A DNA stretch of 63,933 nucleotides, the filler included. It is 5 parts of 5 records of this genome, joined end to end, with 100 filler letters (N's around TTAATTAATTAA, not from the genome) between each part and the next. Parts side by side here need not be neighbours in the genome. Positions count along the whole stretch, not along the records: positions 12,550 to 33,571 come from DRR378314_1298; 4 more parts are not named here. One strand, given 5' to 3'. Below, one piece after another: positions 12,450 to 59,716 of this stretch. Under the pieces are notes generated by a model. It saw only the letters and a program-made list of their open reading frames with translations. It made no database searches and had not been told where the DNA came from. The position numbers were made by a program, and so were the translations under genes. How positions within the stretch are numbered: the first letter of the stretch is position 1; each line of letters opens with the position of its first letter.

Positions 12450-12549
12450 NNNNNNNNNNNNNNNNNNNNNNNNNNNNNNNNNNNNNNNNNNNNTTAATTA
12501 ATTAANNNNNNNNNNNNNNNNNNNNNNNNNNNNNNNNNNNNNNNNNNNN
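12450..12549. other. Artificial contig linker
   Basis: N44-TTAATTAATTAA-N44 (stops in all six frames), identical at four places. Confidence 0.98.
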
Positions 12550-12744
12550 GCCCGAAGAAAGAACTCTTCTGCAGGGCGTCCATTGTAGCTCTGGAGCACT
12601 ACTACGCCGGATCTGGAGTTGTGGCATGGCCAATGTAGAAGCTCTGGGCCCGGTAATCAGGCGGGCGAGCAAAGGCCCAGGCAGTGATCGAGGGGCGTTA
12701 TTCGAGCGACGTGCGCTGCTGTCCCGGTTGCAACGGCAACGCAC

Positions 12745-15700
12745 CGTCCTCCGTGAAGTCCATGAGCGGCGGGAGCGGCTTGCCGTTAGGAAACGACTTG
12801 GCGGTGCGAAGCTCGTCAAAGTACGGATGCGCGAGCATTTCCACAGCCGTGGGTCGCTCGGCGGGAGAATACTGCAGCATTTTCGAAATGAGATCCAGCG
12901 CTTGCTCATCGGCGCGGCCGCGCAGCACTTGGTCCCACGAATGCGCGCGGATCTGAGGAAACTTGAATTCTGAATAGTTGCTGTTCATCGTGCGGATCTG
13001 CTCACGCGTAGGAGTGCCGAGGACTTTGATGATTTCCACCAACTGGTCAACTCCACTTGTTCCTGGGAATAGGGGCGAGCCGAGCAACATCTCGCCAAAT
13101 ACACATCCCAGCGACCAGATATCGATCGAAAACGTGTACGAGGTCGACCCGAATATCAGCTCGGGGGCGCGGTAGTATCGCGAACATATGTAGGAGATAT
13201 TCGGCTCGCCCTCAATCAAGCGTTTCGCGCTGCCGAAATCGCACAGTTTCAGCACATGCGTTTGGGGATCCAGGAGCAAATTTTGCGGCTTGATGTCCCT
13301 GTGGCATATTCCGAGACTGTGGATGTAGGCGAGCGAACGCGCAACTTGGTACAAATACACCTACAAGAAACAAATTTGGCATGCAGAGCCAGTACGCACA
13401 CGATAAGCGCGTTGACAAACATTGCGCACTCGCCTAGGCAAGCATGCAAACGTAACCTGGACCCCTTGCCACGTGTAGAACAGCTTGCCCGCCACAGACG
13501 CATCGCGACTTCACGGGGAGGGGGGAACGGTAACCAATTCCTCCCGTCAAACGCCCATCCTGCTCTTAGTGCGGCGCTGGCCAAAGGGGATGGAAGCGGC
13601 GCGCCACGTTCCGGCGCGCACGATCGGACAGTGGCGCCCACGCTCCCACTCCTGTGCAGTCATACGGGCCGTGCGCGTGTCCGAGTAAGCATACGATCCG
13701 CGCGGAACGAAAGAACCATGCCATACCTTGATAATGTAAGCTGGCATGTGACTTCGCGCCTTCAAGTAGTGTCTGAGCACATTGTAAAGAGCCTCGGGCA
13801 CATACTCCAGTACAAGATTCAGATACGTCTCGCCGTGCTTTTTCCCGCTGAGGACGAAACTCGCACGCATCTGCACTGTGTTGGGATGCGAAAGCTCTTG
13901 CATGATCTGCAGCTCGCGGTTCTAGAAGTGTCACACGACCGTACGAAACACGGGGGGGGCAGAGGGAGCGGAAGAAAAGGCAGGCAACCACACAGAATCA
14001 GGGAAAGTTCTCCCAGCATGGACGCACGCGTCAATTTGTGGATTTGGCATCTACAGGAGCGATTCGCACGCATGCAAGTACACTCCACCTCTTGAGCCGA
14101 TCGGTGCATCCCAATTCACTTCTGGGCTTGTCATGCAGCGAGACATTGCGTGAGTCTTATGCATATCGCCCAGCAAGCGAGAAGGCGAGCGGGACGTGCG
14201 GCACGCTGGCCTTGTGTCGGGCGATCTTCCGCGCACACACAAGCACGAGGTTCAGGGATGGCCAGATAAGCAAAAGGGAAGAGTTCCAAAGAATGGGTAC
14301 TCCGCCCACAATGATACCACATCCAAAGCACGCCTAAGCACATTCTGCGCTTCATGTGGAGGTAGCAAACTGGACTAGGCAAGTGCCCTCCCACCAGAGC
14401 ACACACGCTTCGCAAGGAACAGAGCAGTGCATCTGACGCGGCTCCTCTTGAGTTTACCGACAGCAACACACGCACGTACCTTGAAGCGAGAATCCTCGAG
14501 GACCTTTTTGATTGCAACAATCTCATTGGTCACTTTATCTCGCGCCTGATAGACGACACCAAACGACCCGCTGCCGATGACGCGCATAGGCAGATATCTG
14601 CAGAGGATAAAGGGGGAAAGAGGCAGAGAATAAAGGTAAGATACAAGCAACACGGCGAGCCCGTCCACTTTCGACTCTGTAGTGCGCTCGTATGCAACTA
14701 CCAAGACTGCAGAGCAATGCCACAGGGAAGGAAAAAAAATGCGCCGCAAGATTCGCCGGGCTTTTTGATCCACGAGCGAGTTTCAGGACATGGTCGTCGC
14801 GCGCTCGCACCCTTCCGCGCAAAGCGGCTACACTATGGGTTTCCCCAACCACATCTCTGCGTGTGCATGCTGAGCAACGGGCTGGCCCGCGGACCAAGCG
14901 ACACATTCGCAGGTGGAACCCGTACACTACCGTGCAACGGATGCACACCATGCTGAAACAACGATTTATACACCAGTAGTGTCAGCGTAGAATCTGTGCT
15001 ATGCAACTGCTTCGCATGGCAAAAAGGCCGTGTTTCTCGTTCCACGCGAGCAGCTTTTCCCGCTGCCCGTCCTTCGCACGACTCGCACAAGACGAAGCTG
15101 CGCCCTTGCACCTAGCCGAGCGCTCTGCAAGTTCTGCAGGTCGAGCGCGCGCTAATAAAAACCAACTAAACAAAACCGGCAGATATTTTCGGTACTTGTG
15201 CGCGAAAAAACTGCGAGAGAGATAGAAAATCTACAGGAAGCATCCAGTGCGCTCTCGGCACGCGAAGAACAGGCGCCATTCGGCAGACGCCCGTCACGTG
15301 CACAGGCATCAGGAAGCAGGCTAAGCAGCACGGCGCGAGCGAGGCGCAACACAAGACTCGCTTCGCGCTTCCTTGGCGGACGCATCGCGCCCTCGTCCAT
15401 ACATCTCCATACGCAGGTGCAAACGTGACATAATATACAATATACTCAAACGAGCTACATTTTGAGGCTGACGCGACAACCTTTCCAGCTGGCACGGGAA
15501 GCAGATGCGCCGGTGCGGAGGTGGCACGCGCGGCCGTCGTCGGTACACGCGCGCCGGGCCAGAAGCGCCGTCGCGCCCACACCAGGGCGAAGCCGCACAC
15601 ATAGCCACCGCGCAGACGCCGACGGTGACTGCAAACGCTGACTATGCCAGCGCCATGCTGTGCTCCAGCGGAAATTCCTCCTGGGCAAACATGGCTATTT

Positions 15701-19701: not shown

Positions 19702-20580
19702 TTATCCCCATGCTGCTGTTGTTGCGTAGTTAACAACGAGGACGTTATCTATGCTGTAATTTTCGTGCAGGTCCCGGATTTGTCTGTCTGGCGTTGGCGA
19801 GAATGCGCTGCTGCAATACAAGTACTGCACGGGGAAGAATGACGCGCCACCAATCCTTGTCAGCGCAGCCAGAGACACCGACAGTCGTCTCAGATGATTA
19901 TCCATGAACTTTGCACGAATTTTGTATTCGTCTACCGCGACGCCAACCCATGGCGTATGCGGAAGCGACGGATGCGCTCGCCCTATAAGAATGTGCTTCC
20001 GCGACAACACCACGCACTCTTGAATGGTGTAGGCTCCCCCGCGAGCCTTGACGTACCACTACGACAGCAATCGCGATATCCCGTCCGCCGCCACGCACGT
20101 GGTTCAGCATCGAATATTGTGATAGAATGAAGAAGACACGCACACACAAGGAAGCGCGCGGGTTACAGGGGATGCGGGCGGTCGCCGCATACGTTTCGCG
20201 AATCCCTTTTGCAATCTGTCCGTAGCCAGGAGATAGAGATCGCTTCGCGCGCACCGTACGCACCTGTATCGCGCTTGAGTTGTCTCCGCAGGAAGTTGAC
20301 AACCGACGCGAAAGTATCACTCGCATTCACTTTGAATTTGCTTTGCTTGAGAATTGGCGCGTCGCCTACAGCGCGGAGATGCACAACGACTGCGCGCGCA
20401 AGAAAACGAGTTGTCGCGGTGGGTAAAAGGAAGCAGCGGGAGGTGAGACAAGCCTCCGCCACAGCATCTGCGGTTTTGCTGCGGAACTGGCTCGCAAACG
20501 TTCACTCACAGAAATACAACTATTTCCAGAATAACGCAACTCTTCTCTTGCACCGTAGCGGCGGACGCAGTGGACGACAT
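19702..20580 (-). CDS. ATG12: Ubiquitin-like autophagy protein ATG12 (96 aa, 4 exons including a 2-nt exon)
   Basis: Exons 20580-20541, 20389-20264, 20058-20057 and 19824-19702 give [34 protein letters not shown]...[24 protein letters not shown]...[12 protein letters not shown], with the family C-terminal AWG. Confidence 0.93.
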
Positions 20581-21903: not shown

Positions 21904-24900
21904 ATGGTACGCTGCCACCCCTTGCACTTTTGCTGCCGGCGCCGGACACGCGAAGCTATTTGCTGCATGTGAACGCTGGCGTAATGTTTTTCTGCACTGG
22001 GGCTCTGGATTGCACGGGAATGCGTCGTTCTTGCGTGGTCCTGTGCATGCGCGCCCGTGCCGCTGTGCACACACGACGCTGTATTCGCGAGCCGCCCCGC
22101 CCCCCCTGGTTCTGCGGCTTCGCCGTAGTGCTTCTGCCGGTGCGAAAGTCGGGGCGTTTCGGCTTTTCTTGGGCAGCGCGAAGCAATGTTCTTATGTTGC
22201 TTGTGTTATCAAGATGTGCGCAAGAAAGCCAGTGGTTTCCGTGGTCGCATAGGGAGGCCTGGCCAAGGGGTCAGCACCGTGGCGAAGCAGGTGGAACGAT
22301 GCGTGCTGTGACTGCTGTTGCCCGCAGTTTCGTTTTGGCACAGCAAGCCGAGGCGGCGCGACCGAAAGAGCGGCCGCGGGGGGGGTGCGGTTGGCTGTAG
22401 GGCCAGTCACGGAAAACTGGGAACATGTCGGGCGCGTGCGCACACAGCCAGCTTGTTTGTGCCCCCTTGCAACTCGTGATGCTTGTCATATCTATCAGGT
22501 AGTCAATTGGGGGTTCGTTGCTGTTCCACTGACCGAGTCAGCGTTCGCACGCCCCCGGTGTACGGCTTCGGCGACTCTTGGGCACGCTCTGCTCGCATCT
22601 CGCGCCCCGTTGGCGCGCTTGGTTGCAAGGTTGTTGGGCTTTTGACACTATCATGGGCGTAGGACGTTGTGGTAGGATTCACAGGCGCGCTTTTGCGATT
22701 GTAGTGGCTTCCTGTGCTGTGCCTGCGGCCCGGTCCGCGCACCAGTTGGGCCACCGGCGTGCGGCTCTGCTCGGCCCTGTGCTTGTGGGAGCGCCGCGTG
22801 TTTGTTCGCCAAGCTACTTGGCACTCTCGGTCAGCTGAGTGTTGTCCCACGTCCCTCCCTCGCACACGGAGCGCTCAGCGCCGGTGATTGCCGCACATGA
22901 GGTGCAACACCGCACTGCTACGTTGGACGGTGTGCATCTTCGTCCTTGGAGCGGGCGTGCGCTTTTTGTAGCAAAGCACACTAGCGTGGTCTGGTACGGG
23001 CGTTGCCCTCGCATCGGCCGTGCTCGTTCCGGCGCTTGCTGCGCATCGCTGCGCCGGTCTACGCGAAAGGCTTTGCGCGCTCCGTCACCGTGCGCATGAG
23101 CCCTTGGCGGAAGCTGCAAGTTGGATCTGCCGAATGTCGGAGCTACGCCCACGGCCCGTGCCGCTCGATCCTTACTTGCCCGCGCTTGGTTTTGCTGCTC
23201 GTCCCTTGCGCAGGTGCACTTCACGATCCCCCAGCTGCGGTCCATTATGGACCAGCAGGACAATATCCGCAACATGTCCGTCATTGCGCACGTCGATCAC
23301 GGCAAGTCTACCCTCACGGACTCGCTCGTCGCGGCCGCCGGTATTATCGCGACTGAGGATGCCGGTGAGAAGCGACTTACCGACACGCGCGCGGATGAGC
23401 AGGAGCGCTGCATTACCATCAAGTCGACCGGTATTTCCATGTACTACTCGATCGATGAGAAGGAGCAGTCTCTGCCGAAGGGCGCCAAGAGCAACGAGTT
23501 CTTGGTCAACCTCATCGACTCCCCGGGGCACGTCGATTTCTCTTCGGAGGTGACCGCCGCACTTCGTGTCACTGACGGTGCGCTCGTCGTCGTCGACTGC
23601 GTCGAAGGCGTGTGCGTGCAGACCGAGACGGTGCTGCGCCAGGCGCTTGGTGAGCGTATCAAGCCTGTTGTCACCATCAACAAGCTCGACCGCGCCTTCC
23701 TGGAGCTCCAGCTCGATCACGAGGAGATGTACCAGAACTTCCAGCGCGCCATCGAGAGCGTCAACGTTATCATCGCGACGTACAACGATGAGAAGCTCGG
23801 CGATCTCCAGGTGGCTCCGGAGAAGGGAACGGTTGCGTTCTCCGCCGGTCTCCACGGGTGGGCGTTCACGCTCACGAAGTTCGCGAAGATGTACGCGAAG
23901 AAGTTTGGCGTCGATGTGGAGCGCATGATGTCGAAGCTTTGGGGTGAGAACTACTTCGATGCCGAGGGCAAGAAGTGGACCAACCGCGAGACGAGCAAGT
24001 CTGGCAAGTCTCTTCCGCGCGCGTTCTGCCAGTTTGTCATCGGGCCGATCCAGAAAGTGTTCGACACGGCGATGAACGAGCGCCTTGATGAGCTGTGGGC
24101 TCTCCTTGGCAAGATTGGTGTCGAACTGACGTCGGAGGAGCGCGAGCTCCGCGCCAAGCCGCTGCTTAAGCGCATCATGCAAAAGTGGCTCCCCGCGCAC
24201 GAAGCGCTGCTGGAAATGCTTATCCTTCACCTGCCGTCGCCCCGCACGGCGCAGGGATACCGTGTGGAGACCCTCTACACCGGCCCGCTGGACGACCTTG
24301 CCGCCCAGGGTATCCGCAACTGCGACCCCAACGGCCCGCTGGTGCTGTACGTGTCGAAGATGGTGCCGACGTCGGATAAGGGACGTTTCTACGCATTCGG
24401 CCGCGTGTTCTCCGGTACCGTCAAGGCCGGCAAGGCGCGCATCATGGGCCCCAACTACGAGCCCGGCAAGAAGGACGATCTCTTCGTCAAGAACATCCAG
24501 CGCACTGTGCTCATGATGGGACGCCGCATTGAGGCTGTTGACTCGGTGCCGTGCGGCAACACGGTCGGCCTTGTCGGCATCGACCAGTTTGTCATCAAGA
24601 CGGCCACGCTTACCGACTGGGAAGGCGCGTACCCGCTGCGCGACATGAAGTTCTCGGTGTCGCCGGTCGTGCGTGTCGCGGTTGAGTGCAAGAACCCCTC
24701 GGAGCTTCCGAAGCTTGTCGAAGGCCTGAAGCGCCTGTCGAAGTCGGACCCGATGGTTCAGTGCCAGATCGAGGAGACGGGAGAGCACATTATCGCTGGT
24801 GCCGGAGAGCTGCATCTCGAAATTTGCCTCAAGGATCTCCAGGAGGATTTCATGGGCGGCGCGCAGCTCATCATCTCCGAGCCGGTCGTTGCGTTCCGTG

Positions 24901-25736
24901 AGACTGTCACTGGCACGTCGCCGGAGCCGATCCTTTCCAAGTCGCCGAACAAGCACAACCGCATCTACTCGACGGCACTGCCCCTCGACGACGAGCTGTC
25001 GGCCGATATCGAGGACGAAAAGGTCACGCCGCGCCAGGATATGAAGGAGCGCGCGCGGTACCTCGCTGATACGTACGAGTGGGACGTCACGGACGCGCGC
25101 CGTATCTGGTGCTTCGGCCCCGACGGCACCGGCCCGAACGTGGTTGTGGATGTGACCAAGGGTGTGCAGTACCTCAACGAAATCAAGGACTCCGTTGTGG
25201 CGGCCTTCCAGTGGGTCACCAAGGAGGGTGTGCTCTGCGACGAAAACATGCGCGGTATCCGCTTTGACATCAACGATGTCGTACTGCACGCCGACTCGAT
25301 CCATCGCGGTGGTGGCCAGATCATCCCCACGGCGCGCCGCTCGTTCTACGGTTCGATGATCACGGCCGGCCCGCGTCTGCAGGAGCCTGTGTACCTTGTC
25401 GAAATCCAGGCGCCCGAGTCTGCCATCGGCGGCATCTACTCCGTGATGAACCAGAAGCGCGGTACCGTGTTCGAGGAGAACCAGCGTCCGGGAACGCCGA
25501 TGTACAACATCAAGGCGCACCTTCCGGTCATGGAGTCGTTCGGCTTCACGTCGGCGCTGCGCGCCGCCACGTCCGGACAGGCCTTCCCGCAGTGTGTGTT
25601 CGACCACTGGCAGACGATGCTCAACGATCCTCTCGAGGCCGGCAGCAAGGCCAACGAGATCGTGCTCGGCATTCGTAAGCGCAAGGGTCTCAACGTGGAC
25701 ATCCCGACGCTCGACAAGTTCAAGGACAAGCTCTAA
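21904..25736 (+). CDS. EEF2: Translation elongation factor 2
   Basis: Main exon 23214-25736 has [23 protein letters not shown] and the [11 protein letters not shown] diphthamide loop. The Met most likely comes from ATG|gtacgc at 21904-21906, the only ATG|GT I found upstream. An intron directly after ATG is a known feature of eEF2 genes. The start position is less certain than the gene identity. Confidence 0.95.
22472..22538 (+). ncRNA. Candidate intronic box C/D snoRNA
   Basis: Terminal stem actcg/cgagt flanks a C-like GTGATGC and a D box CTGA, about 67 nt, inside eEF2 intron 1. No target identified. Confidence 0.3.
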
Positions 25737-33571: not shown

Positions 33572-33671
33572 NNNNNNNNNNNNNNNNNNNNNNNNNNNNN
33601 NNNNNNNNNNNNNNNTTAATTAATTAANNNNNNNNNNNNNNNNNNNNNNNNNNNNNNNNNNNNNNNNNNNN
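33572..33671. other. Artificial contig linker
   Basis: N44-TTAATTAATTAA-N44. Confidence 0.98.
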
Positions 33672-33889: not shown

Positions 33890-35347
<1,458 letters not shown>

Positions 35348-36569: not shown

Positions 36570-39500
36570 ATGGTCGAGCACGATAGAGATGGAGAGACCG
36601 GGGAGACGCAAGGTCTGTGTGCGCGGGTGGCTGCCCGCCGCCGAGCGACCAAGGCGCGCTCACGTTGCTCGGCAACCAAGAGCGGGCAAGACAGGAGAAC
36701 ACGAAGGCCAGTTCCGCTGTCTGCAAAGCGATAATGTTCTGGTCATATGACATTTTTATCTCATTCTACCATTCTCGCCTCTATCCGTACCTGGGACATG
36801 TACGTGCACAACACGCAGGACAAACGGTGGAAATGACGCCCGCCCAGCCCCTCTCCTCCAGCACAGCCCGCGAGGCGTTCCGCGAACGCGTACGTTGCTG
36901 GCCATCGAGATCGTCAATGGCGCTCCAAGCGAACAAAAGTTTGGCCCCTGTGCTATCGCACATCTCATACCCCTTGGGAGAAAGTTATCCCTTCCAGTGT
37001 CGGGTCAACATGGGCCAAACATGAGCAGATTTTGCAGTAGCACTCGATTTCCGTCCCCCCTCGCTTGTCGTCTCCCCAGTACCTGGTTCGGGCGTTCTGT
37101 GCCGCACGCCTGCCGTAGCGTCAGTGCTCGCCGCTACAATAGGCGGGCGCATCGCACGGCCACAAAGAAATTGACCCGTGGCAATTGCGCGCTACAGCAC
37201 TAACGTTGTGGTCGTCGACGTACCGGATCGTGTTCTCCAACTCTCGCCTGGGACCACGTAACAGGATATCGAAAAGAGTATGCACTTCCACCAGCAGCGC
37301 GCTGCGCAGCACCATGTGGAGAACCATGGCGGGTACGTGTTCGAGGGTGTGTGCGCATCACATTGAGCAAAAGGTAGTGCATGTAGGCTCAGATCCTCCA
37401 TAGTCGTATTGCACTCCTTTCATGCCCCGGCAACACGCCTCGTTAACGCGCTAGTCGCACCTGTGGCTGATGCTTGCAGGGACGGCGGAAAGTACATCAA
37501 GAGCATTGTGTTCGGTGGCCTTGACGGGGTACGTGCAGAGGTGCTCGCGAGCCACTGCGGCCATCCTTCTACAGCCAGGGCGCCGGATACATGCTGTCGA
37601 GTAGAAAAGAAAAGAAACATACGTTAGCCGTCTCGCTCGCTGCTACGCTTGGCTCATAGCTCGCGTCGGTAAACACTACTGCTCGGTGGTGCTGTGCCGA
37701 TCACCAATTCCAGATCATCACGACGTTTGCCGTTGTTGCCGGCGTCGCCGGCGCCGGGCTCGATATGAAAATTGTTCTTGTACTCGGATTCACGAACTTG
37801 ATTGCAGGTGTGTCGCCTTTTGGAAGCGTTTGTTCGCCTAGAGAGGGGAAGGAATGAGGAGCGTGTACCTCGTGGAACAGCAAGCTGCACACCCGGCGAA
37901 GCAGTCGCACGCACAGCCGTTGCTTACCAACGCTGATCAGCCAAGAGCAAAAGTATGCCCAACATTTGGAGTAAGAATATGCGATCGAGGAACGTGGCAG
38001 GCATGCTGTTGCGCTATGTTTGTGCTACACCTTGTCAGTGCGGTGCCCCAACGCATTGGCTGCTCTGTGCAGTGCTTCTGGCTGCACCGCGTTGTGCCTG
38101 TCTACGTGCTAAGCCTCTCACTCTACGTGCACGAACTTTCCTGCCTGTGATGTTTTCCCTGCGCTCAAAGATGGTATTTCCATGGGTTTCGGGTACGTAC
38201 TTGGAATGAACTCCACAAAACGTCTGCGCTGTGGCGATTTCCACAGCTTCAGCGTACCTCGGAGCCCCGATTCGTGCTTGGTTGCCGTAGAATAAGAGGA
38301 CAGAGGCACTCCGGAAGGCTGTACTCGGTTGTATTTCCTGCACCAAACGAAGGTGCTTGTCATCGCAGCGACCCTGTTTTGCCGTTTTACTCCTTGCGAT
38401 ACTTATTGATGACACAGTTTTCCACTGTGCCGCTGGCATCTTCCCACTCCTTCGGGTGTACATCGACGCCGCTATGGAGCTCCCATTTGTAGACGAAAGC
38501 AGCTTCGACCTGTGTCCGGACAGACAAGGATGCGACGACAGTGCCAAAACTGTGCACTTGTCGAAAACGGGAAATATCTGTAGCGGACGCAAGGGCCTTC
38601 CAGCTCAGCTCATATGTGCCGCTTCCCCTCCTTTTGCTTGCGGATTTATTGATTTGTTTCTCGCTCGCTTGCGCGCTCTCCTCTGCTCTGCGACCCTGCA
38701 GCGACTACCTGTCGGAAAAGGCAGAGCTCGAGTATACGCATGCAGAGCGGCAACGCGAAGAGTGGGAAATGGAAAACTTTCCGGACGGTGAACGGCAGGA
38801 AATGGTGGAACTGTATACGAAGCGCGGGCTGTCAAAGGAAGACGCGGAAAACGTCATCAATATCATGTCAAAAGAAGGCTACGAGCAGTTCTTCGTCGGT
38901 CCGTTTCCGTGGCCGCTCTTCCGCAGCCATGCGACGCACCGCCGTCTCTTCACACGACAAACAGGCCGTAGACGCAGCCTACCAGCGCGTAGCTTCTCTA
39001 CACGCGATTTTCCTCTTGTCGGTATCCCGAGGTCGTGGCGGGGGGGGGTGCTTTCTGTGCCTGCGTAACCTGCTCGTGCACGATTCCGTCTGCTCGCCCA
39101 GCGTCGTATCCATACTTCCCTCCGTGCGCCTCTCCACCTGCCCGTTCTGTGTGACTTGCGCAGATCTCATGATGGTCGAAGAGCTCGGACTGCTTCCTCC
39201 TGATGACGGCGACAATCCAGCGATGAATGGTATGGGACGGGAATTTCTCCTGGCTTCCCTCGCTGCTGCTCCGTTCCTTGTTCGCTACTCTTTCCCCTGG
39301 CTTCTTCGCAGCTGTCGCCGTGCTAGCTCGGGTGCTGCGCTACGTTGCAGAGGCAAGCTATGGCCGTCGCGCCCCTGCCGCGTACCTCCGTTGAGTGCGA
39401 TCGCGTCGAACGTATGCTGCCTTGTTGACCGTGAACCGTATTGCGTTTCATACGCGGGTGCGCCTTGCAGGGCTGATCACTTTCACGTCGTTTGTGGTCT

Positions 39501-40686
39501 TTGGAATTCTTCCACTCATTGTGTACATCCCGTATGTTGCCGTCGGCAGCAGCGATGACACGGTATGTATCGACAGCAGCTCAACAACAACGACAAAAAA
39601 AAACACAGCGCTGCACGCGCTGATATTCGCGATGCTGTTCGTATCTATATCTGGTTGATGTAGATCGTTCTGTGAATTCTGTCGCCCTCTGCCTGGGATA
39701 CCGTGATAGAACGAGGCGCTTCGTGTGCAACTTCCTCGCTGCGCGGCTTTGTCGTTGCTGTCTCGCGTGCGCTATACCCTTTGTACCGCTCCGGCACGTA
39801 CTGTTTGCCATGGCATGCGCAGAGCATGCTGCACAAGTGCGAGTGCTACAGTGTGCTAACAAAGGCGCACTTTACAGTTCACGCCAAGTCGAGGGCGGCT
39901 GACGGTTTCTGGAACGCGTTACCCTTGTTCTGCTTGCGTTTCCATCCGTGCACCTGGAACGGCAGGCTGCATTTGCGGTCGCGTGTGTCGTCACGGCTAT
40001 GACGATGTTCCTGCTTGGCTACGTCAAGGGACGCATTTCGAATACGCACGCAATTTCCTCTGGTTCGTTTTCGCGCATGTGCACCGTGCGGAATACACAG
40101 CTGTACATGGTGGAGTAGATGATAGAGTGGATCGGACGCCGTTCTGCAGGGTCTGGCGGACTCGGGTGTGTCGGGGCGCACCGGAGAGCTTGCGATCTCG
40201 TATACGTGCTGCATCGAGGGGTAGCCGCCGATTCCCGCATCGCGCTTTCCACAATCGTCTCTCGTGCGCGCGCACTGCCTGATATGTTCTCTCCCCCTTT
40301 GATTCTCTTGCTATACACCGTGCACTTGCGCAGCGATCGCAATGCTTGGGAACGGTACCCTCGCAGCATCGATGGGTTATGTCGTCGGATTTGCGACGGA
40401 GGCGGTACGTGAACTCGCGCTTGGCACCCAGTGTCGGGGATTCCGCTGCCGTACGCAAGTTGCTGCCATCGGACTCTCGTACTCGAGCTTAGCAGACTCT
40501 CTCTGCACGGTATACGCCTAACGCACTTGATTGCGGTATAGAGCCTATAGCTCGCACGCGTTCTCCGGGGCGCCTGTGGCTGCTGCGTCGAGTATTACCA
40601 ATGTGGTAGAATGCACAGCTCAATTCGTCTTGGCGTTGCGCGTGTACCTGCGGTTGCAGATTGTCGACGCGAAAACATGCGGATAG
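36570..40686 (+). CDS. VIT1: VIT1/CCC1 vacuolar iron/manganese transporter (12 exons)
   Basis: In-phase exons give YIKSIVFGGLDG-IITTFAVVAG...NLIA-DGISMGFG-DYLSEKAE...ERQREEWEMENFPDGERQEMVELY...DLMMVEELGL...FVVFGILPL...MFLLGYVKG...GNGTLAA...IVDAKTCG*. Confidence 0.92.
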
Positions 40687-41610: not shown

Positions 41611-43439
41611 CTGCATACCAGCCATTAACAAATCCATCTCAAATTGAAACAGAGGCAAGCACGAGCAAAGAAGCATTCTTGCGCTGCCAATCGACCGCCT
41701 CTGCTCGCCAGCACACTCGTAAAGAAGCAGGAATCGGAACCAGCAGTGGCGCGCTGATCACTGCGCGCCCACTGGTTTGGTTTGGAAACCGCTACCTGCT
41801 CTTCACGCCATGCCTAAAATTCGCATGCATTTGTAATCAAACACATGCATGCACAAGTTTCAAAATGTACACGATCCTGAAATCGCAAGCTAGCGCCAGC
41901 AGAGCGCACGCGGGGAAAGAGCGCGTGCAGCGGAACCTTGGCAGGAGCACCGTCCAGCACAGCGCCTTGGCTGGCAAAGCGCGCGCTGCGGCCTCGCCGC
42001 CCAAGTTGCAGTACAGCATGCATGAATGAGAACCGCCGCCCCATAAGCACAATGGAAGAGTATAAATACACAGAACACTTTCCAACCACGAAGTAGAACG
42101 TGCGCGGCGACCACAGCGTACCCCGCGCTGGCGCGCGTCCGAGGCGGCAAGCCGCATCAGCACAGCGGGGAACGCACCTCGCGAGCGACGGCCCACAGTC
42201 TGCCGCAAGGGATCCGTGTTTGCCGAACAAACACCATCGAGCTTCCGCACTAGACATCGGCACACCTGGAGAGTTCTTTCTTGGCAGGGTACCTTGCGAC
42301 GCGCCCGCCTTGCTCTCTCTTTCAGATAGGTCAGGATGCCGAGTGCAGCCACGCGACGGGGGATTCCAGGCGCGACGGCCAGAGCGTACCAAATACGGGC
42401 GTGCCGTCGGAGTCCACAATGCAGAATCTAGGCATTACCTTTATTCAGGAGAAAAAGAGACTTAGCACAGGGTTCCGTTTGCAGACCTCCTCCGCCGAGC
42501 GCCTACTCTGCTGTGCAGCAACTGCGCGAAGATAGACGCATACGCAGCCCTGTATAAATACGCTTGCGTACGACATGATACAGGCGATCCGCGCAGGTTG
42601 TTGAGGGACAGGACGAGGGCGAACCCAAACCGCATGAGTGGAGAATTCTCCGCGCTGGACAGCGCTGCAGGTCGCCAGGAACGCACATCACCTACCCTAG
42701 TCTTAACCACAAGTGAGCAGGCTGACCCTGGAGCTGCGGCGCGCTCCAGCAACGCGGCAGTGGAACTTCACTGCCCGCCAGGAAACTTTCCCCTACCATC
42801 GCCTCCACCCCACCCCTACGCCTACATGCGCCTGCGTCGCTGATAGAAACGCCAGCGGTCACTTGCGACTACGCAACGCCGTGGAGATATCTGAGGCATA
42901 CAGCTACAACGACAAAGAAGCTACCGTTTCACCCAATTCCACTGATTTCCTTCGCTTGAAAATCGTGCCCTACGGATAGGGGGGGTGGCGAGCTGCGCAA
43001 GTCGACAGCGCGAATTCCTACAAGTGACGTGTTCGTCAATCTCCCTAAGTCCTACGCCCACATTTTTCTGTCTCATATATGCACAAGGCATTATTCCCTC
43101 TGCGTGTCGTCAGCGGGAAGCGGAGCATACACGTGTGTGGAACCTCTTCGTGCGAAAACGAAGACAAAGAAACGCAAAACCTCGTGCTTCGGGCACCCCC
43201 AGTGGTGCTTTCTTTCTTTGCCGTGGGGTAGCAGGCGAGCAAGTGACAAACACAACACCCCTCCTTGGCAAGAACACGCGCTAGCACTTTTCCAGTACTT
43301 GAAGCTATCTACACGCTTCCGCAAGTGTCGTATCAGTGTGGCCTAAGAACGGGAGCTGGCTACGAATAACGGTGCTCGGATATTGCACGCACAGAGTGGA
43401 TCGGATCGCCCACAACCCGCGCGCGTGCGTCTCCGTACG

Positions 43440-46319
43440 ATGGAGCTTGGTGCCACGCCGGTGGCGCCTCGGATGCCTTTGGAGAGACCAAAACAACCTC
43501 TGCGGTTGGGGTCGACATCTGAAGCGCACTTCATGTCACATGCGTCGCTTTACAAACAATCCGCATTTTCCTTGCGGCGTGTTGGGGACGCAATATCTCT
43601 CCCGCAGAACCTGCACACGCTCTCGCTCTCGCCGGCGTCCTTCGAAGCGGTGGCCCGCCTCGCTGTCCCAAGCAGATCGCAGCGTCTTCTCGATGTTTGT
43701 ACAGTAGCTGGATGTCTTGCTGATGTCTTACTTGCTCCGTTCGCGGCCAGCTTTTACGAACAAGGAGCAGAGCTCGAGCTCCCGACATGGATGCTCGTGC
43801 TGAGTGCACTCGTTACCCTGCTGCTGGCTACACGCGGAGTCTCCCGCGTCCGCCGCGCACGGGCCGTTGCTGCCAAGTTTATGCGACGTTCCACCGACCT
43901 TGGGAACGCGGCGTCAGTAACAAAAGGGCTCGAACGCGCTGGTTGGCTTGACATTGCACTCAGCTTTCCACCTGACCTTGTCGTGGCGGCGTTGGCGCGC
44001 ACTGTTCCGCGCGCGGAAGCGCTGAGCGTGTACCGCTGGCTACTGTGGACGCACACTGCACGCTCCGTCGTTCTTATGCCGCTTGCGTCGATATCCGACG
44101 GAGCTACCTATTTACGCGGCGTGGCTCTCATGCTTCTGTTTATTCTCATCATCCATATCCTTTCCTGTGCTTGGATGAGCCTTGCTCGGAGCGAGCTGGA
44201 CAGCGAGTACGCTCCGCAGACGCCCGTGCTTCCATGGGCCTGCCGATCCGGTACCCTGTGCTGCAGGGTGGAGAACGCGGACGCAGGCGAGCAGGCAGCC
44301 TGCTTGCAGGTCTCCTCTGCGGGAACACAATGGGTTACTTCCGTGTATTTTGTCACACAGACCTTGACGACAATTGGATTTGGGGATGTCAGCGCGCAAA
44401 CGCGTACAGAGCGCTTCATTACAGTAATACTCATGCTGCTGGGTGTCAACATGTACGCCGTAATCTTCGGAAACATCACGACCTTGCTACAAAGCCTTGA
44501 CCGCCGCGACCAGCACTTCCGCGAGCAGCGGATGGCCATGTCAGAGCTTGTGCGCCGCTACAAGCTGTCCAACGATATTCAACACACTCTCGCAAGCTAT
44601 GCAGATTTGCGACATCGGCTTGCGTTCGACGTCGAGGCCGAAATTGTGCTTCGAGATCTTCCCACAGCAGTGCGCCGAGACGTCCTTCGCGAAATGCACG
44701 AGCACGCCTTGCGCAGGATGCCGATTTTTCGCGACGCGCCGCGCACTCTAATAGGCATTGCGGTGACGTACCTACGCCGTGAACTGATTTTACCCGGAAC
44801 AGTTGTGCACGAAGAAGGCGAGCCATGCCTATCTGTGATTATCGTGCAGTCTGGGTCGCTCCGAAAGGAACGCATAACGTCGCGGGGTGCGCGCGCTGCA
44901 GGGACAGTACGTGCAGGAGAATATATAGGTTTGGCAGAGGCACTATCCGGAGGCCGCTTCCGCTCGTCGCTCCGCGCCAACACGTTCTGCGATACGTACT
45001 ATCTGCAAGTCGAGGACTTGGTGAAAATCATTCACACATTTCCCGAATTTGGAGATCAGGTGGTCGCGGTGGGAAAGGACGATCTGGCCACGACCGAGAC
45101 AGGAACGTCGCACGCCCACCTGACCTCTGCCTCGCACTTGCACTCCCCAGCGCTGCGACGTGTTGACACAGAGTCCGAGTCGAATCTCCACGACGACACA
45201 CCCGCACAAGATTCGCGTGTGGAAGAGAGCGCGGCTTTGCCGGAACATCCTTCAGAGCCAAAGAGAACAAAGTCGGAGGCGGATATGCGAGCGCATCCTA
45301 CACCTCCAGCTCTATGGCGCGCGGGTACCGCGATTCCACGCAGCACACAGTCTGCAGCCCAAGGCACTCCTGGCGGTCTCGTTGCATCCGAGCCGGGACT
45401 AGGTCGTGTCGTGCGCGTATCGCGATCCCTGCGAAATCTGCGAGCACACGAAGTCGGAGGTCCACTGGAAAATGTCCCGGAAGAAGGCAGCGACGGTGGA
45501 TCGTCGTCGACGCCGCGAAGCCGACACGGGAGCACGCAAGATCCTGACCACGCTTGTCCGAGCCCTTCCGCAACAGCCACACCCGTCGACGCAAGGCTTC
45601 AGGACAGCAGAGACATCGAGCCAATCAACCGGTCGCAGGCTTCCATCAACGCAGAACACACGCCGGAGATTCCCCAACGGCCGCAGATTTTCACCGGCGC
45701 TCTTGCACGGTTGTCACAGGCGGACGGTGACTCGCCCACCGCAGCTCGCGCAGGCCAGTCGATGCCGGAGAGCCCTCACGGATACGGCTACGGGGACATT
45801 GATAGCCCACGTGTTCCGCGCAATCTAACTCCTCGAAACGATGCATTGCATGTAATGTCCCGCATGCGATCCACCTATCAGAGTCGTTCGCTGAGAACGA
45901 TCCATTCTGCATCAACGTTGTCACTGCTTCCAGAGCGGGCAGCGGACGGTACGCTGCTGGCAAGCCCAAGCAGCTTCCGCGACGCCGCCGACGACATTTC
46001 CATCGACGGCTCCGACGTCGCTGTGAACGACGAAGTATACGTTAGCTCCCTCTCAGCTCTACCTGGCGTTGCATCTGCAGGGAGGCGCATGTCTATTGTC
46101 TCCGCATCAGGGTATCCTCCGGACCCCGCATCCGGCTCGTCCGCGCACGACGTCGAGCGTGTGGCGCTCAGCGGCCTCGCGAGCGCGCAACATGCTCCTG
46201 CGGCTTTCGCGAATGGCGATCTCGCTGCTACCCTTGCCAACCTACAGGAAGCAGTTTCGCGCATCGAGTCTACAGTGCAGACTCTGGCACACTCAATCCC
46301 AGAAGCCGAGGCTTCGTAA
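43440..46319 (+). CDS. 6-TM K+ channel with C-linker/cyclic-nucleotide-binding-homology domain (KCNH/EAG-like), intronless, long low-complexity C-tail
   Basis: Pore WVTSVYFVTQTLTTIGFGDV, S6 MLLGVNMYAVIFGNIT, C-linker VLRDLPTAVRRDV, CNBD VRAGEYIG...LRANTFCD, terminal coiled coil. First ATG at 43440. Confidence 0.88.
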   Translation: MELGATPVAPRMPLERPKQPLRLGSTSEAHFMSHASLYKQSAFSLRRVGDAISLPQNLHTLSLSPASFEAVARLAVPSRSQRLLDVCTVAGCLADVLLAPFAASFYEQGAELELPTWMLVLSALVTLLLATRGVSRVRRARAVAAKFMRRSTDLGNAASVTKGLERAGWLDIALSFPPDLVVAALARTVPRAEALSVYRWLLWTHTARSVVLMPLASISDGATYLRGVALMLLFILIIHILSCAWMSLARSELDSEYAPQTPVLPWACRSGTLCCRVENADAGEQAACLQVSSAGTQWVTSVYFVTQTLTTIGFGDVSAQTRTERFITVILMLLGVNMYAVIFGNITTLLQSLDRRDQHFREQRMAMSELVRRYKLSNDIQHTLASYADLRHRLAFDVEAEIVLRDLPTAVRRDVLREMHEHALRRMPIFRDAPRTLIGIAVTYLRRELILPGTVVHEEGEPCLSVIIVQSGSLRKERITSRGARAAGTVRAGEYIGLAEALSGGRFRSSLRANTFCDTYYLQVEDLVKIIHTFPEFGDQVVAVGKDDLATTETGTSHAHLTSASHLHSPALRRVDTESESNLHDDTPAQDSRVEESAALPEHPSEPKRTKSEADMRAHPTPPALWRAGTAIPRSTQSAAQGTPGGLVASEPGLGRVVRVSRSLRNLRAHEVGGPLENVPEEGSDGGSSSTPRSRHGSTQDPDHACPSPSATATPVDARLQDSRDIEPINRSQASINAEHTPEIPQRPQIFTGALARLSQADGDSPTAARAGQSMPESPHGYGYGDIDSPRVPRNLTPRNDALHVMSRMRSTYQSRSLRTIHSASTLSLLPERAADGTLLASPSSFRDAADDISIDGSDVAVNDEVYVSSLSALPGVASAGRRMSIVSASGYPPDPASGSSAHDVERVALSGLASAQHAPAAFANGDLAATLANLQEAVSRIESTVQTLAHSIPEAEAS

Positions 46320-47995: not shown

Positions 47996-48095
47996 NNNNN
48001 NNNNNNNNNNNNNNNNNNNNNNNNNNNNNNNNNNNNNNNTTAATTAATTAANNNNNNNNNNNNNNNNNNNNNNNNNNNNNNNNNNNNNNNNNNNN
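47996..48095. other. Artificial contig linker
   Basis: N44-TTAATTAATTAA-N44. Confidence 0.98.
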
Positions 48096-54763: not shown

Positions 54764-57700
54764 ATGGATCGCGCCGCGTGCGCGCACGGCTCGTCCACTC
54801 TGTCTGCTGCAGTGCAACGCGCGGGAGCGCGATCTAAGCCAATGTGCATCATGCTTACACGCAAAAGACCTATAAACATCGAGGAAAGAGATGTGCTGAT
54901 GGTGGAGTGGCCCGCTGCGTGCTTGGGTTTTGCGTGCAGAGCAACATTTCGTCCCGCGTCTCTGACGCGTGCCGCGGCACTCTCGAGCTCGGCTGGCCAA
55001 GGAACCACTGCCAGCGCACCAACAAGCTCGGAAGGACGAGCGCTGTATCTGGATTCGTTGGTTCGTTCACCCTCGATAATGGTACTCGTATCATTCTGGA
55101 AGAAGAAATCTTTGTGGTTTTGAACCGCGGAAAGAGTGGTTCGCCCCAAAGCTTGCCGTTTTGCTCTTGTGTGCCGCCGCTCTTCCAACCCGCTCCGGTT
55201 TTGCCGCTGCCCGAAGGAGCGTGCTTCTGCGGCGTTGCGCTCAATGCTCGCCTCGACAAGGGATGCTCACAGCTGTACGCATGTACTTGCATCGTATGTC
55301 TGTAGGCGACAACTCCTATGGATCCGCGTGTTCTGGATGCCATGCTTCCGTTTTTGACGGAAAACTATGGCAACCCGCACTCGCGTACACACGTGTACGG
55401 CTGGGATGCTGAGAAGGCAATCGACCATGTACGTGGACCTGCTGTGCGCGTCCAATTCGCAAGCTGCTTGTCACGTTTGCATACCAAGGGCCTCTTTTTG
55501 GAAACATTGATAATGTGACGCACGATGCGTATATCGTACCGGTGCATTTAGTCATCCGTCTGAGAAGGGATGGCGGTTGCTGCTGTTGTTGTTTGCGTGC
55601 GACCAATGGCACGTCGTGGACACGGATGTGCCAGACCAACGCCTCTCCACCCTCAAGTGGCTATCCAACGCGCGCAGCTGCTCGGTCGCTTCCCTCTAGC
55701 GCTTTGCGTTGGCGTCTTTTTCTTCACACACAGCTTCGTTCAGCTGTTCGATAATGATATAGAGTACGATGGAAAGGCACGCATGCGGCTTGCTTCCGTA
55801 CTCTTCCGCGTATGTCTCTCGTAGTGCAGCCGTGGCTTGCTCACGGGGTTTGCATTCGTATGCCTGCATGCGCAACTGTTGAACAGGCTCGAAGCCAGGT
55901 GGCGTCGCTCATCGGCGCTGACGCAAAAGAAATTGTTTTTACTTCTGGTGCCACAGAAAGCAACAATATTGCACTCAAGGTACGAATATGTGCATCGCGT
56001 GCGTTTGCGATATAGAATACGCGTGTCCCGTAGCACGTGGCGTTTGCTAGTGCAGAGCTACTTTGTCTTGCGTTTTTGCGCGCCGGGCTGAAGCTGCAGC
56101 GACGCGCAGCTGATCCGCAGGTTGTCATTGTATTTCCGCCACGCCAATTTTTTTATTGCACGTTTGCTTTTGCGCGTGCGCGTCTTGGGACAATTTGGAT
56201 GTCAGGGCGTGGCGAACTTTTACAAGGCGAAGAAGAACCACATCATCACAACGCAAATCGACCACAAATGCGTGTTGGACTCGTGCCGCTACTTGGAGAG
56301 GGCTGGGTTCGAGGTAAGAGCCGAAGTTTCGCTGATATTCGTTTGCTCCGTGCGCTGTTGTCTGATTGCTGAGTTAAGTAGTGTACTCACCTGCGCGCAT
56401 TGGTGTGGTAGCTTGCTTGCGCATGGTCGCCTCGCTGAATTGCCGTGTTGCGGAAAGTTTTGTGCCTCCGTGCCTTGCTATCCCCGTTGTCGGCTCACTC
56501 AGGCTGCGCTCCGCTTTCGCGATCTCGCAGGTGACTTACCTTCCCGTGGATTCGTATGGCATGGTGAACCCGGAGGATGTGCGGAAAGCTATCCGCGAGG
56601 ACACTGCGCTTGTGTCTGTGATCGCGGTCAACAATGAGATCGGTGTTATCCAGCCATTACAAGAGATTGGAACGATCTGCCGCGAGAACAAGGTGCGGCA
56701 GCTTGCCACATGGAAATCGATCATGTTCTTTGGTGCAAGCACCATGCACGTTCTACTATTCTGCCAGAGTATGTCGCTGTTGCTCTTGTATTCTACCTTT
56801 CTATTTTTGATATGTATATGTCATGTTGTGCGGGCATTGCGTCTTCCTGGATCCCAGGTGTTCTTCCACACGGATGCGGCACAGGCAGTGGGGAAGATCC
56901 CCATCGATGTGAATGAACTCAACATTGATCTGATGTCCATTTCAGGGCACAAGATCTACGGTCCCAAAGGTACGTATTGGATAAGAGTTCGAGATCAGGA
57001 AACGAATGAGAATTTCACGTGTTCTTGTCACTTCCGGGGCACGTTTGCGCGCTCGGGAGCTCGAAAGCCGACATTGAGCGCTTTGGTGTACCGCTTTGCG
57101 GACGGGTTGGCATATCTCGCTCGCCTTGCTTGGCACTGCTCGTTCGCAGCGGTGAATACGTCCGGTGCCTCTGCGCGCAAGGTAGTGTGCGTCTACCGGG
57201 AGCTTATTATCGTTTTTCGGCTCGTCGCACAATTGTTGCTTTGCGTGTAGGGGTCGGAGCGCTGTACGTACGGCGCCGCCCGCGCGTCCGTCTTGAGGCG
57301 CAGATGAGCGGCGGTGGCCAGGAGCGCGGGATGCGGTACGTCGAGGGCGCTTGCAGACGATTCCGCTTCTCACTTGTTTTCCAAGGTCTACGCATGCATG
57401 TCAGTGGCTCACAAGAATCATGGAACAATGCTCCTCTCGGGCACAAGTTGTCTGTGCGAGTGTTCTCGTACCTTTCACCGCATGGAATCTTGTCGTGGCG
57501 ATCGTGCTAACGTCGAATTGTATGCGGTTGCAGGTCTGGAACGTTGCCGACACCGCTGGTCGTTGGTATCGGCGCAGCAGCAGAAGTTGCCAAGAATGAG
57601 ATTGAAAACGATCACGCTTGGGTGTCACACCTGAGCAAACGCCTCTACGATGGTGCGTATTTAGTTGCCGTCTCGTAGCGAAATCCCTCTTCTTTCTGCA

Positions 57701-58760
57701 GACGATCGCACAGATACGCCCACGTTTGTTTGGTTGATATGTTTCAGCCGCTTTCTGAAGCGGTACGGCCGCAGTGGATGAGCTGCTGTAGGTGCTTGCA
57801 CTCCATTCCAGTGCTTGCTCTACTGGGCTAGGAACCGCTGTACTTTTGACGCTCTGGATATCGGCCCACTTTCTTTGGAACTCGCTGTACGGTGGAGTCC
57901 GGTCTCGTTTCTTTCCCGCGCGATGTTTCCTGTGCGTGGACAATATGCACCCGATTTGCATTCTGGCATTTGCGTGTTCGACAATCGAGCGTTTTTGACC
58001 CTCGCAGTACGGCACACCGGAGCCACTCACATGTGTACGCTTCTGCACGCCCTGGTCATACTGTTGCGCATCTGTTGGCGAGACAGGAATCACGAGCCAA
58101 GTAAGTGATATTGTTATGAACGGTCATCCCGACCATCGGTATCCCGGCGCCCTCAACCTGAGTTTCGCCTATGTTGAAGGCGAAAGTCTGCTCATGGCGC
58201 TTAAGCAAATCGCCGTCTCCTCTGGATCTGCATGCACAAGCGCAAGTCTGGAGCCGAGCTACGTATTGCGGTGCGTCGGAATGCTAGCAAATAAGCACGT
58301 CGCGGCCCGGGACTGGACCGCCCGTATGGTGGAGGTAGAAATCGCAAGGATACTTCCTGCTGCAGCGTTCCGCTGGATTCCTCTAATATTGAAGGTCTCG
58401 GTGTTCCGCAGTTGCGAAGCGAAGCGCTAGTGTTCGCGTTTCCAGCGCCTTTCGGGCAACCAGGATAATGCATACTTTGTCCAGCTTATCGTCGCAGGTG
58501 CACTTTTGTATGCCGCTGGCTTTTTCGGGAGGCTCCGCGACGCTTGTCAGCTTACGTGTGTTCGACGTGGCAGTGCATGGCTTGAAGAGCGTGCAATATA
58601 GTTTCCGCGCGTGTCCCCGTATGCGCCAGCGTTTTCCATCGCGACGTTGTTCACAATGAGCGTTTCCGCGTTGCCGTCTTGCAGTGCTCTCGGGGTGGAC
58701 GAAGAGCTTTCGCATACTTCAATCCGATTCGGCATTGGTCGCTTTACGACGGAGGAAGAG
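54764..58760 (+). CDS. NFS1: Mitochondrial cysteine desulfurase (IscS-type), truncated at contig end, start uncertain
   Basis: In-phase exons: [69 protein letters not shown] (PLP Lys), [25 protein letters not shown] (catalytic Cys), [10 protein letters not shown]. Confidence 0.95.
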
Positions 58761-58829: not shown

Positions 58830-58929
58830 NNNNNNNNNNNNNNNNNNNNNNNNNNNNNNNNNNNNNNNNNNNNTTAATTAATTAANNNNNNNNNNNNNNN
58901 NNNNNNNNNNNNNNNNNNNNNNNNNNNNN
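58830..58929. other. Artificial contig linker marking the eukaryote/bacterium boundary
   Basis: N44-TTAATTAATTAA-N44 after a poly-T run. Confidence 0.98.
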
Positions 58930-59022: not shown

Positions 59023-59706
59023 TTACTCCATGGTGTCTGAAGCCATCGGGGTGACGGGTGCTGAGGTTAATGGCGCGGCGGTGGTTGATGATACTGGAAA
59101 ACGATCATCCAAACTGACATTCAGCCGCAACACATTCACCACCGGCGAGCCCAGCCAGCCTGTGTTTTCAAGTGCTTGATCAATTAGCGCCATCACAGTA
59201 GCTTCGTCGATGCCGCGTGCTTGCGCTACTCTGGCAACCTGTAGCTCAGCCGCCTCGGGGGAGATATGCGGGTCGATACCGGAGCCAGACGCGGTAATCA
59301 GATCAACAGGGATTTGATCGACACTTACGTTTTCACGTTGAGCAATGGCATTTGCATCTGCCTGGGCACGCTCGCGCAGCGATACGTTACTCGACGCCAG
59401 ATTAGACCCTGAGACGCCACCTGCGTCATTGCCCGCCGCTGATGGGCGACCAATAAAGTACTCATCGCTGACAAACGTCTGGGATACCAGGCTTGACCCA
59501 ACCACCCGACCAGAGGCATCTCGAACTAAACTCCCTTGCGCCTGCTCGGGGAATAACCAGCCGCCCAGTGTTGTGGTAACCAACGGGTAAATTAGCCCCA
59601 GAAGAACTGCCATTACCACCATAAAGCGAAGTGCATTGCCCCAAGAGGCCTTTGCCTGCAGCACATCGTCATTCGCAGCGATCTGGCGTTTCATATCTAC
59701 ATTCAT
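59023..59706 (-). CDS. kdpC: K+-transporting ATPase subunit C
   Basis: GLIYPLV, QAQGSL, GSSLVSQ, YFIGRPSA, SGSNL, PVDLITASGSGIDPHISP, VNVLRLN. AGGAG lies 7 nt before ATG 59706. Confidence 0.95.
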   Translation of the reverse strand: MNVDMKRQIAANDDVLQAKASWGNALRFMVVMAVLLGLIYPLVTTTLGGWLFPEQAQGSLVRDASGRVVGSSLVSQTFVSDEYFIGRPSAAGNDAGGVSGSNLASSNVSLRERAQADANAIAQRENVSVDQIPVDLITASGSGIDPHISPEAAELQVARVAQARGIDEATVMALIDQALENTGWLGSPVVNVLRLNVSLDDRFPVSSTTAAPLTSAPVTPMASDTME

Positions 59707-59716
59707 CACGTTTCTC

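Follow-up and report, generated by a model that had tools for sequence, protein, structure and literature searches.

A candidate two-nucleotide exon beside an ancient intron of ATG12 in a seemingly poorly sampled eukaryote lineage

We analysed a 63,933-nt stretch of DNA in which separate parts are joined by fillers (referred to as the window), and from the anatomy of an ATG12 gene on its minus strand (20580-19702) we propose that this gene carries a constitutive exon of only two nucleotides (nt), TG. We put the probability of this reading at roughly 0.55. It is supported by the observation that only the route through this micro-exon combines canonical splice sites, which score like the real sites of the genome, with a protein that is typical of the family. 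The TG would be flanked by two introns with ordinary GT-AG sites, here termed intron A (upstream) and intron B (downstream).

Results

A phase mismatch between two conserved ATG12 exons

The ATG12 gene is located in the part of the window that stems from DRR378314_1298 (12,550-33,571); all positions count along the window, and a slash marks a splice border. Exon 2 ends with ...GAT ACA G, followed by GTGCGT from position 20263, and the last exon opens with TAC TTG TAT at 19824, immediately 3' of GTGCAG. The gap between the two exons comprises 439 nt, and as it is bordered by a phase 1 donor and a phase 0 acceptor, a direct join of the exons would be out of frame. Within this gap the bases TG (20058-20057) are positioned between TAG (20061-20059) and GTACGT (20056-20051), i.e. 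the region reads GTCGTAG/TG/GTACGT. A previous reading of this DNA, made from the sequence only, had described the phase 1 end of exon 2, the phase 0 start of the last exon, the frameshift on direct joining, and an acceptor and a consensus donor that are 2 nt apart and split the gap into 205 and 232 nt, and the coordinates bear out all of these points.

Both open reading frames (ORFs) can be assigned to ATG12. The exon 2 ORF corresponds to positions 2-40 of the Pfam profile PF04110 (APG12; E 2e-11) and the last-exon ORF (19824-19705) to positions 48-87 of its 87 positions (E 3.6e-11), and both match the solved ATG12 chains 1wz3 and 4gdk. On Arabidopsis ATG12b (1wz3) exon 2 aligns with residues 11-55 and the last exon with residues 57-96, and just one residue, Leu56, falls outside both exons. 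The frame closes with ...AAWG and a TAA stop, in alignment with the ...AWG ends of 1wz3 and 4gdk. The C-terminal glycine of ATG12 serves conjugation; in the window both coding exons are intact and conserved, this glycine included.

The micro-exon sites score like verified sites of the same genome

Donor hexamers are not enriched window-wide (GTGCGT: 74 seen vs 71 expected), and as such counts are uninformative the splice consensus was taken from introns anchored by homology. Four other genes of the window, coding for a GSK3-like kinase, a VIT1-like protein, a katanin/Vps4-like AAA ATPase and the cysteine desulfurase NFS1, provided 18 complete introns with 19 donors and 18 acceptors, from which weight matrices were built. 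The seven introns between exons E1 and E8 of NFS1 were fixed by exon-wise alignments with abutting coordinates on solved NFS1 chains, and the junctions of NFS1 intron 8 and of the AAA ATPase, VIT1 and kinase genes by Pfam colinearity where the exon scored, by reading frames, GT-AG ends and conserved motifs. Four exon ORFs, two of the AAA ATPase and two of VIT1, had no Pfam match, and the last NFS1 exon ORF gave no Aminotran_5 match, its sole match being DUF1152 (E 0.18). Joining the exons in silico gave a continuous reading frame without stops for each of the four genes (353, 171, 172 and 324 residues).

All 18 introns are of the GT-AG type and have lengths of 137-558 nt (median ~268 nt), five of them being at least 400 nt long. 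Introns of 205 and 232 nt are thus ordinary, as the sequence-only reading had held, but their size does not discriminate, since an intron of 437-439 nt would be equally ordinary. The donors follow the consensus G/GTRYGT, with G at -1 in 17 of 19 and G at +5 in all 19, and the hexamers GTACGT and GTGCGT are the commonest (four times each). The acceptors are YAG, with TAG in 4 of 18. There is no constant branch motif, and YTRAY is found in only half of the verified introns (9/18), so that the branch motif is non-discriminating; in intron B, CTGAC is located 39 nt before the acceptor.

In leave-one-out scoring the verified donors range from 2.8 to 15.0 and the verified acceptors from -1.7 to 8.7. 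The micro-exon donor GTG/GTACGTCA scores 9.4, which is above the median, and the micro-exon acceptor 4.4, which is approximately the median, both being inside the range of the verified sites of this genome. The outer sites of the gap, i.e. the donor at 20263 and the last acceptor, score 10.5 and 7.6, respectively. With matrices derived only from the first seven NFS1 introns, or only from the remaining three genes, the ranking is unchanged; the respective scores are then 9.5 and 6.3 for the micro-exon donor, and 3.2 and 1.4 for the micro-exon acceptor.

Introns are distributed very unevenly among the genes of the window: NFS1 has at least nine introns, and the ORFs of EF2 (23100-25736) and of a cyclic-nucleotide-gated channel-like protein (43347-46319) have none. 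The third intron of the AAA ATPase gene exhibits a tandem acceptor, GAG/CAG/ (34959-34970, plus strand), both AGs of which are in frame and would yield a product with or without one Gln. Neither the G+C content at third codon positions nor codon scores trained on EF2 separated genes in the window.

An acceptor-donor pair of this kind is rare by chance

Bare AG..GT pairs with two bases in between occur ~1.3 times per 435 nt and are so frequent that the dinucleotides alone carry no weight. Donor-like sites with a score of at least 9.3 number 58 in the window as compared to 32.5 in shuffled sequence, and a lone strong stray donor is therefore not rare either (~0.1 per 435 nt). The rare element is the combination of an acceptor of about median score or better, a spacing of just two bases that begins with T (giving Val) and a strong donor. 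The pattern AG/TN/GT with comparable scores does not occur in the verified introns (5440 nt), loose thresholds included, and in 6 Mb of sequence generated by a Markov model of intron interiors it had a frequency of 7e-5 (strict thresholds) to 2e-3 (loose thresholds) per 435 nt. On both strands of the whole window there is one further AG/TN/GT with an acceptor of at least 3 and a donor of at least 8; it is located within a long ORF and resembles an ordinary exon end. The probability that the micro-exon pair occurs by chance is low.

The two bases restore the codon found in relatives at an ancient intron position

From metagenome contigs, 69 related loci were recovered, the closest of which are 55-78% identical over an exon. 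A search of representative proteins with exon 2 resulted in 212 matches at E <= 0.001 (best identity 76%), and the exon 2 region compared with candidates of 61-196 residues in 16 matches at 63-73% identity, 14 of them named as land-plant proteins; among longer proteins exon 2 had no match. Judging from these identities and from that of EF2 (see below), the collections searched contain neither the source organism nor a near relative. In relatives that have an intron at the junction in question it is in phase 0 and lies directly before the F/Y-x-Y strand, the upstream exon ending in a whole hydrophobic codon. The junction is ...ACA GTG/GTAAGA in locus L017, ...TCG GTG/GTGAGT in L026/L027, ...AGC GTG/GTGCGT in L036, and TTG or CTG/GT in land-plant loci, and L003, which is intronless here, reads ...TCG GTG TTC.... 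As the phase 0 intron of the relatives occupies the same place, the last acceptor of the window gene (GTGCAG/TAC) marks the ancient intron position. Exon 2 of the window gene keeps just the first base (G) of the junction codon, and G plus TG restores the GTG of the relatives, the rebuilt codon being identical with that of four related loci (at the exon end or in the uninterrupted gene).

The protein family points in the same direction. From 165 homologous proteins, 90 matched the strand motif and 71 a second (loop) motif; many of the remaining 75 and 94 proteins, respectively, represent incomplete or wrongly predicted models. Directly before the strand, 54 of the 90 proteins have Leu, 20 Val, five Ile, four Gln, two each Met and Cys, one each Pro, Asn and Lys, and none Gly, so the Val encoded by G plus TG, which the sequence-only reading had regarded as fitting the family, is the second commonest residue at this position. 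A comparison of orthologue lengths, which that reading had put forward as a check, agrees as well: the loop between helix and strand most often consists of five residues (47 of 71 homologues), just as the micro-exon route gives. Nine of the 71 homologues display loops of 25-29 residues, among them P0033, and no credible loop is longer than 12. P0033 has a 21-residue 'insert' at the ATG12 loop, and its genomic locus (L007:414-476) holds a 51-nt GT...AG stretch there (TTG/GTGCGC...TTGCAG/TTC). As this stretch, which is situated at the ancient position, resembles an intron, we read P0033 as an unspliced model and the long-loop homologues as likely model errors.

Evidence against the micro-exon and alternative routes

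Several observations weigh against a 2-nt exon. The training set of the matrices is small, and the putative donor of intron 1 of the same gene scores as low as -9.3 (see below), so that a poor matrix score is no strict argument against a site. Within the last 75 nt of intron A there is no YTRAY, a motif that 9 of the 18 verified introns lack as well. Moreover, the micro-exon is absent from the 69 related loci, those with an intron having an undivided GTG, TTG or CTG and a single intron; as no close relative is among these loci, we take this as lineage specificity and not as absence of the feature. Finally, the sequence-only reading had called the TG necessary, which is too strong, as there are several other in-frame routes, the strongest of which it had overlooked. 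This route removes one ordinary intron of 281 nt, which begins at donor 20263 and whose acceptor ends at 19983 (CTTATAG/GG); it would extend the last exon by 158 nt and insert 52 residues into the loop. With sites scoring 10.5 and 7.2, its weakest site is better than that of any other among the 4246 in-frame routes listed. It also profits from the frame of the last exon, which has no stop over 78 codons upstream (20058-19825), beginning right after the putative micro-exon acceptor TAG. With a codon score of -0.05 the insert lies closer to the ATG12 exons (0.00 and 0.08) than to the average intron (-0.33), an intermediate value that is reached by 3.4% of stop-free intron windows and has to be seen against the similarly low scores of the ATG12 exons themselves, and the frame-free exon-vs-intron score of 0.007 lies between the means of introns (-0.12) and exons (0.08).

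The introns of this genome are A-poor, and in trials on verified introns open frames of at least 78 codons were obtained in 17% and of at least 52 codons in 35%, an in-frame, stop-free upstream acceptor scoring at least 7 in 3 of 54. If the micro-exon is real, the 281-nt route is thus a moderate coincidence. Conversely, under this route three features would be mere coincidences, namely the strong AG/TG/GTACGT pair, a strong acceptor exactly where the ancient intron ends and a gap of precisely one residue; its loop has a length without credible precedent, and it puts a Gln before the strand, which in P0033 (...LLQ) stems from read-through of a CAG acceptor. Sequencing run X1, which we guess to be RNA, holds 0.29 of the sampled 31-mers; removal of the entire 439-nt gap would give an exonic 31-mer fraction of 0.31, and the 281-nt route one of 0.48, so that X1 fits the former, an argument of little weight. 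Runs X2 and X3 have shares of 0.09 and 0.06, which are not evidence of habitat or expression. Altogether, we consider the 281-nt intron improbable, even more so than a loss of two bases. In the latter case a real or ancestral ACA GTG/GTGCGT with one 437-nt intron would have been shortened, be it through faulty assembly, a lesion specific to the strain or pseudogenisation in the very recent past, and the AG/TG/GTACGT inside this intron would be a coincidence. L036 has exactly GTG/GTGCGT, removal of TG yields the ACA G/GTGCGT of the window, an intron of 437 nt is of ordinary size (5 of 18 verified introns having at least 400 nt), and the window consists of draft contigs joined by linkers. Against this, three independent events would have to coincide, namely the deletion itself, its location in the junction codon among ~290 coding bases, and a matching strong AG/TG/GT. 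Further, there is no sign of indel errors, as the 18 introns of the four spliced genes are in frame and the long EF2 and channel ORFs as well as the kinase ORF are unbroken. Indels of such kind are rare in short-read assemblies, and contigs that end in simple repeats suggest an assembly of this type. As both ATG12 coding exons are also intact and conserved, with the C-terminal Gly present, we regard the loss of two bases as unlikely.

The remaining routes fit the rules of the genome or the family less well. Intron A might be real and be followed by an exon of 41 nt (20058-20018) with the donor AGA/GTGCGTGG, which would add 13 residues after the Val. Such an exon is in frame and stop-free, has a donor within the verified range (4.0) and avoids the steric problem of 2 nt, but it bypasses a far stronger donor (9.4) at the ancestral position, relies on A at -1, present in just 1 of 19 verified donors, and results in a loop of 18 residues, unseen in the family, which makes it very unlikely. 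The sequence-only reading had itself offered a longer route, from donor GC/GTACGG (20259) to an acceptor ending at 19856 (AAG/GA, exon start 19855), with ~11 additional residues. We can confirm that this route is in frame; its donor, however, scores -1.4, below all 19 verified donors, none of which has C at -1, its acceptor scores 0.6, and it bypasses a consensus donor just 4 nt upstream as well as the acceptor located where the ancient intron ends, leaving it hardly any credence. We give just as little to a GC-AG intron shifted by two bases (GGT/GCGTAC ... CAG/TAC), which is in frame, restores one 437-nt intron at the ancient phase 0 position with Gly instead of Val, and could be defended by the very poor donor that the gene may already use at intron 1. 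This donor scores -12.1 (-9.9 to -12.6 with the other training sets) and has A at +5, all 19 verified donors being GT with G at +5, and Gly occurs in 0 of 90 homologues at that position. The odds that remain are left to an explanation of another kind.

Two more arrangements were tried and rejected. A nested reading of the stwintron type (see Discussion), with the external donor composed of G and TGGTA and the Val deleted, would have T at +5, as opposed to G in 19 of 19 verified donors. For longer exons ending at 20057, the sole in-frame upstream acceptor (20206) scores -2.4 and leaves a 58-nt intron.

The first exon has a weak donor

The acceptor of exon 2 (CAG/TC GTT GTG) requires a phase 1 donor, and the sole ATG-bearing exon with a fitting phase 1 GT ends with ...AAG A/GTTGCG. 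This donor, AGA/GTTGCG, has the score of -9.3 mentioned above, below all 19 verified donors. Position and phase of intron 1 are common to six land-plant loci and L003 (CAG/TG GTT...), Arabidopsis ATG12b (1wz3) is similar in the length of exon 1 and in the K-I-VVHL junction, and within 2.6 kb there is no convincing alternative first exon with a better donor. Either a very weak donor suffices in this ATG12, or we do not yet understand the 5' end of the gene. The 96-residue product of the sequence-only reading depends on this very poor donor, although position and phase of the exon 1 junction match land plants. The features of the locus are compiled in Table 1.

Table 1. Features of the ATG12 locus and location of the genes used for anchoring introns
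Feature	Position	Strand	Remarks
ATG12 exon 1 (tentative)	20541..20580	-	ATG, 12 codons and 1 base; phase 1
Intron 1, 151 nt, phase 1	20390..20540	-	weak donor; acceptor GCGCGCAG scores 5.1
ATG12 exon 2	20264..20389	-	one spare G at end, phase 1; APG12 profile and 1wz3
Proposed intron A, 205 nt	20059..20263	-	CAG/GTGCGT ... GTCGTAG/; donor 10.5, acceptor 4.4
Proposed 2-nt exon TG	20057..20058	-	with G at 20264 would give GTG (Val)
Proposed intron B, 232 nt	19825..20056	-	TG/GTACGT ... CCGTGCAG/; donor 9.4, acceptor 7.6
ATG12 last exon (YLYC...AAWG)	19702..19824	-	TAA stop at 19704-19702
Coding stretch of the 281-nt route only (+52 residues)	19825..19982	-	needs donor 20263 joined to acceptor ending 19983
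Anchoring gene loci	12701-14596 (-), 33892-35347 (+), 38703-40398 (+), 55309-58760 (+)		four genes

Composition of the window and origin of the DNA

Four identical spacers, each consisting of 44 N, TTAATTAATTAA and 44 N, are located at 12450-12549, 33572-33671, 47996-48095 and 58830-58929. The window is thus a chain of at least five separate contigs, and adjacency across a spacer is meaningless. Three of the four contig ends before the spacers are simple repeats, (CA)n and poly-T being plain, a T-rich run follows the second spacer, and the NFS1 and AAA ATPase genes are cut by spacers. On the last contig KdpA, KdpB and KdpC form uninterrupted back-to-back ORFs in bacterial operon order (59026-63464, minus strand), accompanied by the start of a TrkA_N ORF (63747-63932, plus strand); together they take up the contig, and nothing on this contig is clearly eukaryotic; it could be a bacterial contaminant or carry a transferred operon.

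The best relative of the intronless EF2, which is encoded on the plus strand, reaches 74% identity in a set of 8000 scored proteins. Those of its neighbours that bear names range over Acanthamoeba, land plants and a fly, and further labels point, in our reading, to green and red algae, a haptophyte and Rhodelphis. With identities of at most 74% and neighbours this scattered, the source lineage seems to be poorly sampled.

Discussion

Our favoured reading is that the ancient phase 0 intron before the F/Y-x-Y strand, known from plants and several protists, persists as intron B (20056-19825), and that a second, lineage-specific intron, intron A (20263-20059), now resides inside the last codon of the upstream exon. 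The Val codon would thereby be split into the G at the end of exon 2 and the TG at 20058-20057, the mature messenger RNA (mRNA) would read ...ACA G-TG TAC... and the product ...KRDT-V-YLY..., which is typical of the family, and both introns would be removed via ordinary GT-AG sites. Whether one goes further and accepts the proposal as a whole, i.e. a 2-nt exon that arose through a new intron in the last codon before an ancient intron and is accurately spliced in a poorly sampled eukaryote lineage, is in our estimate an even bet.

The acceptor AG of intron A occupies positions -4 and -3 of the donor of intron B. Given the contacts made by U1, U2AF and U5, two sites this close cannot both be fully engaged at the same time, and with only 2 nt between them sequential removal of the two introns is most likely. 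This may be achieved by intron definition, followed by a second step that resembles recursive splicing. On paper both orders work: if intron A is removed first, the donor context of intron B would stay GTG/GTACGT, and if intron B is removed first, the acceptor of intron A would still precede the TG. As to its origin, intron A may have been gained in a single event within the Val codon, 2 nt from the old intron. When copies of introns A and B were looked for in the 64-kb window and the 69 loci, the best off-target matches were 11-24 nt long, and no similar sequence that would indicate a duplication or an introner as source of intron A was found there.

If the micro-exon is true, gene finders would frameshift or truncate ATG12 and lose its defining C-terminal glycine, and autophagy conjugation could be wrongly scored as absent in this lineage. 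Moreover, a 2-nt case outside plants and fungi would join the few proven exons of less than 3 nt, and ultra-short exons would be no mere oddity of land plants and one fungus. The locus would illustrate a route by which such exons originate, an extra intron being placed 2 nt from an ancient one, and exons of 1-2 nt may then be a general outcome of intron gain beside old introns in genomes that rely on intron definition. It would also provide a natural substrate to study the order in which two abutting introns are removed. If, on the other hand, the micro-exon is not real, the locus serves as a warning that a well-scored in-frame alternative (+52 residues) can accompany an obvious model.

A recursive splice site leaves nothing in the mRNA; the two nucleotides of the ATG12 candidate, in contrast, would stay in the mRNA. 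What the candidate would have in common with recursive sites and with stwintrons is that acceptor and donor are nearly adjacent and two consecutive reactions are required. In a stwintron, the donor, branch or acceptor element of the external intron is itself split by an internal one (PMC5587772, PMC5639578), whereas in ATG12 the GTACGT hexamer of intron B is intact and intron A ends 2 nt upstream of it.

The closest parallels are ultra-short exons. A constitutive 1-nt exon has been proven in plant APC11 (PMC4674806), and 1-nt exons have likewise been proven for VPS55 (PMC8831610) and Fusarium CYP621A (PMC12940212); spliceosomes can hence cope with exons even shorter than the one proposed here. 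As in APC11 and VPS55, the exon proposed for ATG12 is far below the size suited to exon definition, is placed between two ordinary GT-AG introns, keeps the frame of a small conserved protein and has escaped annotation (PMC4674806, PMC8831610), and sequential removal of the flanking introns is also the mechanism favoured by the authors of the APC11 study (PMC4674806). The exons of APC11 and VPS55, however, measure 1 nt, are proven by reverse transcription PCR or RNA sequencing and are conserved across land plants, whereas the ATG12 candidate measures 2 nt, is predicted from the genomic sequence, is found in no relative examined and adjoins an ancient intron without being ancient itself. CYP621A resembles ATG12 in that its exon was first inferred from a mismatch of frame and motif in a conserved protein, and differs in being a fungal P450 with a 1-nt exon and transcript support from public read archives (PMC12940212). 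In the literature searched we found no report of a 2-nt exon, although the supplementary lists of micro-exon papers may hold some. The proposed 2-nt exon of ATG12 is thus probably an addition to the known ultra-short exons, one that would lie outside plants and fungi and directly beside an ancient intron.

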